In this document: positions 17,846-17,902 of the stretch, piece after piece | How positions within the stretch are numbered: position 1 is the first letter of the stretch | Layout: each line of letters begins with the position of its first letter | From: Candidatus Falkowbacteria bacterium | GTDB lineage: Bacteria > Patescibacteriota > Patescibacteriia > UBA11705 > JABHMO01 | Length of the DNA stretch: 23,364 bases | Assembly: GCA_018703365.1 (NCBI GenBank) | Contig: JABJLN010000028.1 | Location: forward strand, 1 to 23,364 | Direction of reading: 5' to 3' | Made by a program: the position numbers and the translations under genes | Notes under the pieces: model-generated | Told to the model about the DNA's origin: nothing | The model's database searches: none | What the model saw: the letters and a program-made list of their open reading frames with translations, nothing else

Positions 17846-17902
17846 GTTCGGTTTCTGTTCGCATCTACTACCATTATACCGAACAGAAACCGAACGTCAA
17901 TG
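17846..17902 (-). promoter_or_regulatory. Promoter with an overlapping palindromic operator (candidate LexA box) for the four-helix-bundle/lexA unit.
   Basis: Minus strand cattGACGttcggtttctgttcgGTATAATggtagtagatgcgaacagaaaccgaac. This reads TTGACG, 16-17 bp, TATAAT. The perfect 16-bp inverted repeat gttcggtttctgttcg / cgaacagaaaccgaac brackets the -10, and each arm is GTTC-N7-GTTC. Confidence 0.5.

Follow-up and report, generated by a model that had tools for sequence, protein, structure and literature searches.

The window, by which we mean the whole stretch of 23,364 nt that was analysed, carries lexA within a unit that reads IVP gene, lexA, p154, three micro-ORFs, p82 and dinB, and for all genes neighbouring the two candidate LexA boxes described below the coding strand is the minus strand. 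The first gene of the unit (17397..17795, minus strand) codes for a four-helix-bundle protein of the 23S rRNA IVP family, with matches to PF05635 at 63 bits and TIGR02436 at 81 bits. The second is lexA (16728..17330, minus strand), whose 200-aa product matches TIGR00498 at 197.8 bits against a cutoff of 111, together with PF01726 (LexA_DNA_bind) and PF00717 (Peptidase_S24). Inspection of the translation placed Ala88-Gly89, Ser122 and Lys160 at the expected positions and, judged by its sequence, the gene at 17330-16728 is a bona fide full-length LexA of the self-cleaving type. Identical or near-identical proteins occur in many metagenomes, and the nearest named relatives belong to Kuenenbacteria, Falkowbacteria and other Patescibacteria.

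Downstream of lexA lies a 154-aa ORF, p154 (16170..16634, minus strand), which follows lexA in nine relatives as well. Members of its family invariably begin with Met-Cys and conserve the motifs WGN, GWAKxES, GYEKxxWF and GHDRMP, and by eye the family appears SRAP/YedK-like. Searches with p154 returned no Pfam match even at E ≤ 1 and no PDB relative with either the single sequence or a profile; comparison with E. coli YedK by hhalign aligned 28 columns around 'T..A...HDR.P' at 2.4% probability, and the single-sequence AlphaFold model had a pLDDT of 34. The three micro-ORFs between p154 and p82 (16097-16023, 15920-15864 and 15797-15738, minus strand; 24, 18 and 19 codons) are conserved in sequence and order in the alignment of the related loci L004-L007. 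We also observed a 43-nt direct repeat in two copies (15794-15836 and 15917-15959, 86% identical), just upstream of the third and second micro-ORFs, that is not present in the relatives aligned. The 82-aa ORF p82 (15424..15672, minus strand) has 27 orthologues in related loci, placed immediately ahead of dinB, and neither PDB relatives nor a known family were found for it; it travels with dinB where dinB is separate from lexA (L052, L102, L115 and L175), and there are also genomes in which it is followed by another large ORF and not by dinB. The last gene, dinB (14217..15434, minus strand), encodes DNA polymerase IV (PF00817, PF11799, NF002677). At the opposite end, a terminator-like hairpin with a T-run (17923..17978, minus strand; GCCCTGAAGT...ACTTCTGGGGC TTTTTTTGTTTTT), recognised by inspection, ends the upstream 92-aa gene and sets the 5' boundary of the lexA unit; it was missed by the scan because its loop is longer than 8 nt.

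Two boxes and a core promoter ahead of the unit

Upstream of the IVP gene, two 16-nt arms at 17846-17861 (GTTCGGTTTCTGTTCG) and 17880-17895 (CGAACAGAAACCGAAC) are exact reverse complements of each other (100% over 16 nt) across an 18-nt spacer. A preliminary description of this DNA had claimed such arms around a TATAAT, with a TTGACG -35 overlapping the distal one, and the coordinates were confirmed; it had also claimed that each arm contains GTTC-N7-GTTC, and we find this motif in direct orientation without a mismatch in both, and no other exact copy exists in the window. A perfect inverted repeat of 16 nt exceeds what is expected by chance, the longest in 200 Markov-1 simulations of the window being 14 nt or less (spacer ≤60 nt), and as a DNA fold the stretch reaches -17.4 kcal/mol with a z-score of -7.2. 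When scored with the weight matrix described in the next section, box 1 (17880..17896, minus strand; CGTTCGGTTTCTGTTCG), a predicted direct-repeat operator, is the top site of the window at 27.3 bits, and box 2 (17845..17861, plus strand; AGTTCGGTTTCTGTTCG), which is inverted with respect to box 1, has 24.7 bits. The next match in the window after both boxes has 15.6 bits and lies inside a coding region, and the matrix gave no further LexA box in the 23-kb window beyond the two arms.

The promoter scan placed a -35 hexamer, TTGACG, at 17895..17900 and a -10 hexamer, TATAAT, at 17873..17878 (both minus strand), with a spacing of 16 nt and a consensus match of 11/12, and this promoter of the lexA unit ranks among the top two promoter-like sites in 14100-18700. 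The TTGAC of the -35 and GGTATAAT at the -10 are kept in relatives. Box 1 fills the spacer between -35 and -10 and has its first bases in common with the -35 hexamer (the 16-nt arm overlaps it by one base, 17895), the -10 is found between the two boxes, and box 2 covers roughly positions +5 to +21 of a transcript whose start is predicted near 17866. The window's only copy of the DnaA-box-like 9-mer TTATCCACA, an exact consensus match, is located 8 nt upstream of the -35 (17909..17917, minus strand). The geometry of an autoregulated lexA gene, which had been read into this arrangement, holds in that the boxes overlap the promoter of the unit, but the first gene behind them is the inserted IVP gene and not lexA. 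In every respect that we could assess at the sequence level, the element has the features of a direct-repeat GTTC-N7-GTTC LexA operator.

The Cheo box of Firmicutes and Actinobacteria is a palindrome, GAAC-N4-GTTC. An echo of it had been suggested for the arms, and what they share with it is the GTTC/GAAC tetramer only, the Cheo box differing as a palindrome with a 4-nt spacing; no GAAC-N4-GTTC is present anywhere in the window, and the Cheo-box reading was discarded.

A second copy upstream of the dinB unit had been sought in vain in the preliminary description, and our own search, relaxed to a very low stringency, likewise yielded no LexA box between p154 and p82 (15673-16169), where the best score is -11.5 bits. 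The scan called neither a terminator nor a strong promoter between lexA and dinB. The apparent 500-nt gap between p154 and p82 is probably coding and the unit from lexA to dinB probably continuous. We consider dinB to be probably the distal gene of the lexA unit and co-transcribed with lexA, because it has no box of its own, because no terminator or strong promoter intervenes and because the spacer carries the micro-ORFs.

The box at the lexA promoters of relatives

For comparison we drew on species-representative Patescibacterial genomes and took from them 80 lexA loci, which add up to 1.04 Mb. The 54 kb directly ahead of lexA hold 62 exact copies of GTTC-N7-GTTC and the rest of these loci, 988 kb, holds 17, a difference in density of about 67-fold, and a T-rich filler with an invariant T before the second GTTC is found only in the copies upstream of lexA. 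A weight matrix was derived from the sites upstream of lexA (Y-[G/T/A]TTCG-N-TTTTT-GTTCG); with it, 75 of the 80 loci show a site no more than 750 nt ahead of lexA, a recovery that is partly circular at lexA promoters, and there are 13 mostly weak matches elsewhere. The enrichment of the exact pattern and the independent sites at dinB, dinD and radical-SAM genes described below are free of this circularity. In two of the five remaining loci the upstream sequence is missing, and the other three contain TTTCG-N6-TTTCG, a degenerate version of the box. In the relatives box 1 is always directed towards lexA; a TTGAC -35 overlaps it and a -10 comes after it. Conservation is at the level of the motif, with GTTC tetramers that are fixed across the lexA promoters and a filler that varies, and the consensus Y-GTTCG-N-TTTTT-GTTCG corresponds to GTTC-N7-GTTC with an 11-bp period. 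The enrichment, the recurrence of the site and the full-length LexA encoded downstream bear out the claim of a LexA operator at the promoter of the lexA unit.

The preliminary description had put the perfect palindrome first, and on this point the comparison with relatives calls for a correction. Among 17 inverted pairs, two are perfect, those of the window and of L004 only, and two boxes paired at random are identical in about 9% of cases; the arms of the 17 pairs show a mean of 1.94 differences over the 7 filler positions, compared with 1.72 between boxes of different genomes in the clade. Twelve close relatives have an inverted second box 33-36 nt from box 1, and in Uhrbacteria the inverted box is 27 bp away. 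Other clades, and also L015, otherwise similar to the window, have their second box in direct orientation at 33-38 bp, and at four loci the second box overlaps the first with an 11-bp shift, giving GTTC-N7-GTTC-N7-GTTC. Since the filler differs between arms as it does between genomes, and since both orientation and spacing of the second box vary, selection acts on each box and not on their complementarity. Perfect palindromy is incidental; what forms the unit is the direct-repeat box, of which there are two independent copies.

The inverted repeat could also be viewed as a nucleic-acid structure, a DNA cruciform or a hairpin in read-through RNA, that serves as terminator, attenuator or processing site, in keeping with a 16-bp stem that is very stable for its sequence and that lies just downstream of the end of another gene. 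We regard this as very improbable, as the complementarity is not conserved over the 17 inverted pairs and no compensatory changes were found, no hairpin is possible in L015 and 14 other loci where the second box is direct or overlapping, and the spacing of the arms varies (27, 33-36). Moreover, the predicted start is downstream of box 1, which would leave the unit's own transcript without one arm. A terminator or structured RNA element was rejected on the absence of excess complementarity in relatives, of a T-run after the stem and of an Rfam match. With two direct-repeat boxes as the preferred reading, the hairpin potential of -17.4 kcal/mol is a by-product of two near-consensus operators. 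That a striking perfect palindrome can arise from two such direct-repeat operators calls for caution when raw sequence is read.

The box at other SOS genes and in known LexA systems

In L052, a box identical to the lexA box of the same genome, in a TTGAC-box-TGTATGAT build, precedes, by about 10 nt, a p82-dinB operon that lies 3 kb from lexA, and in L016 a weaker box is positioned 30 nt upstream of dinB. A metagenome scan with the composite TTGACNTTCGNNTTTTGTTCG returned at least 120 stretches. Among the matches listed, 34 fall in low-GC contigs, and of these 21 precede lexA and 3 precede a stand-alone p82-dinB; L102 has box promoters at both lexA and p82-dinB. Promoter and box together are seen ahead of separate p82-dinB operons in L052, L102, L115 and L175. 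On a further low-GC contig, L141, the box precedes a DinD equivalog, which scores 366 bits where the cutoff is 242, and on two independent low-GC contigs, L068 (4025-5916) and L142, it precedes a pair consisting of TcmP and a PA0069/Rv2578c-type radical SAM protein, the L068 box being accompanied by TGTGGATAA. Other low-GC matches listed have the box ahead of DNA methyltransferases and of a GIY-YIG protein.

High-GC soil contigs, among the matches listed, carry the box ahead of genes for a Y-family polymerase with a DnaE2-type Pol III alpha, for PolB and for DinB_2 (DinB-superfamily) proteins. The order of elements at high-GC loci (L084, L095, L105, L159, L165 and many others) was noted separately: the -35 and box composite comes first, then a conserved leader, GGTAGAGGAAACGGGAAACGG..., and then the Y-family polymerase and the DnaE2-type Pol III alpha. 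The gene families found behind boxes in the relatives have repeatedly been reported as LexA-regulated (PMC4951493). The preliminary description had proposed a search for the box at other SOS genes, and the relatives provide it at p82-dinB, dinD, radical SAM, Y-family/DnaE2 and PolB genes, with none in the window itself. Membership of the regulon is therefore predicted from relatives, the window contributing just the two boxes of the lexA promoter.

For Alphaproteobacteria, the LexA motif that has been published is GTTC-N7-GTTC (Fernandez de Henestrosa 1998; Erill 2004, as cited in PMC4951493 and PMC8565304). The box described here shares with it the direct repeat of GTTC, the 7-nt filler and the occurrence in SOS promoters including that of lexA; it differs in belonging to a Patescibacterium whose LexA is short (200 aa), in its strongly T-rich filler and in the extension of the repeat unit to YGTTCG. 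Outside the Alphaproteobacteria, the LexA box of Acidobacterium capsulatum is reportedly GTTC-N7-GTTC too, a finding attributed to Mazon et al. (2006), whose paper PMC7739468 and PMC4951493 cite. The high-GC soil contigs are similar in carrying the identical -35 and box composite before Y-family/DnaE2-type genes, whereas TTATCCACA is rare in their promoters and missing from most (present in 3/87 among the matches listed).

For the Patescibacteria, a LexA study (Sanchez-Osuna, Barbe and Erill 2017, Environ Microbiol 19:3465) is cited by its own laboratory in PMC7739468 as a case of a direct-repeat LexA motif, and GTTC-N7-GTTC has very probably been described for Patescibacteria in that work already. 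Tandem LexA boxes are common at lexA promoters (PMC4951493). The lexA promoter of E. coli (Brent 1982, cited in PMC4951493) has two operators at the repressor's own promoter and tight autoregulation, a likeness to the present case; its boxes are palindromes of the type CTGT-N8-ACAG, close together and downstream of the -10, whereas here the boxes are direct repeats that face each other across the -10 at a distance of 35 bp. The head-to-head boxes around the -10 are a local variant of the familiar two-operator theme.

A second conserved element and insertions at the lexA promoter

In 65 of 75 related lexA promoters an exact copy of the 9-mer TTATCCACA lies no further than 80 nt from box 1 on either side, compared with 0.1% of random windows of the same size. 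Over the 80 loci, 69 of its 84 copies are at the lexA promoter, and the other 15 are close to the expectation from base composition (roughly 12). Where it precedes the -35, by about 8 nt, its orientation can be either one; clades whose promoters have only one LexA box carry it immediately after the -10, in the place that LexA box 2 has in the clade of the window. Its extended consensus is A-[C/G]-TTATCCACA-[G/A]. It was not found in p82-dinB promoters.

As TTATCCACA is a second, equally conserved element in the same promoters, more than one factor probably acts there, and the box might be the operator of another DNA-binding protein that co-occurs with SOS genes, for example a second damage-response regulator, LexA binding elsewhere or not here. 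We judge this unlikely: the box type is the experimentally established LexA motif of Alphaproteobacteria, it tracks lexA in every clade examined and it marks the translesion polymerase and other known LexA-regulated families, and the box is the one candidate repeat that these promoters conserve, TTATCCACA itself being absent from those of p82-dinB. The sequence anatomy that we observed, its conservation and its association with SOS genes point with good confidence to the SOS operator region of a Patescibacterial lexA operon, made up of two direct-repeat LexA boxes in opposite orientations.

For this operator region we infer LexA binding, the transcription start, induction by damage and co-transcription of dinB from sequence. 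One LexA dimer would bind per box, and both would repress the unit. LexA on box 1 would occlude the spacer between -35 and -10 and so block RNA polymerase from the core promoter, and LexA on box 2 would block open-complex formation or promoter escape. Upon DNA damage, RecA-stimulated self-cleavage of LexA would free both boxes, and transcription of the IVP gene, lexA, p154, the three micro-ORFs, p82 and dinB would follow its release until newly made LexA closes the promoter again. The result would fix the SOS box of an uncultivated organism, and the weight matrix and promoter architecture can be used for annotating LexA regulons in Patescibacterial genomes.

The almost universal pairing of the DnaA-box 9-mer with the LexA box at lexA promoters is, in our opinion, of more interest than the operator itself. 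We found no literature linking DnaA boxes with lexA promoters, one candidate-phyla-radiation paper mentioning only DnaA-box-like repeats near an origin, and no dnaA or dnaN in the loci examined. We put forward, tentatively, that the Patescibacterial lexA promoter might be a dual-input switch of LexA boxes and a putative DnaA box. If DnaA binds, the SOS repressor and the co-transcribed translesion polymerase would be coupled directly to the pool of replication initiator, and the RecA/LexA pathway and a DnaA-dependent response to replication stress would, if this is true, merge at one promoter.

The IVP gene between the operator and lexA (17331-17845) is an insertion, absent from L004, L007 and L010 and present in L006, where it was seen in the leader by alignment, and its ORF is flanked by complementary AT-rich repeats that are paired in the predicted RNA fold of the leader. 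The distance between box 1 and lexA exceeds 330 nt in 17 of 75 loci, 14 of which have an IVP ORF by BLAST, with L006 added to them by the alignment; the leader of L025 contains an IS200-like transposase, and in L005 a PD-(D/E)XK_3 gene stands just after lexA. These occurrences suggest that the lexA operon is an insertion hot spot for small cassettes. Selfish-looking cassettes (IVP, PD-(D/E)XK, IS200-like) inserted in the operon would come under SOS control, and this too we find of more interest than the operator itself.

An adjacent IVP gene that the closest relatives lack, with complementary flanks of its own, could raise the idea that the arms are terminal inverted repeats or the target-site relic of a mobile IVP cassette. 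This is extremely unlikely, as both boxes are present in the same arrangement in the cassette-free L004, L005, L007, L008 and L010, and as both arms lie on one side of the cassette. Terminal repeats of a mobile element were ruled out, since loci without the insertion keep both boxes, which we continue to read as a pair of LexA operators.

Two further observations were made in the window. A second four-helix-bundle gene (IVP/bAvd; 11336-11704, minus strand) lies inside a NiFe-hydrogenase-type cluster, and the leader IVP genes of the relatives resemble this copy more than the leader copy of the window. A 971-aa protein (18677-21592, minus strand) has a major-vault-protein shoulder domain (PF11978, 98.6 bits) and a vault repeat (PF17795), and it adjoins an HD-domain protein and a helicase, an arrangement conserved in relatives.
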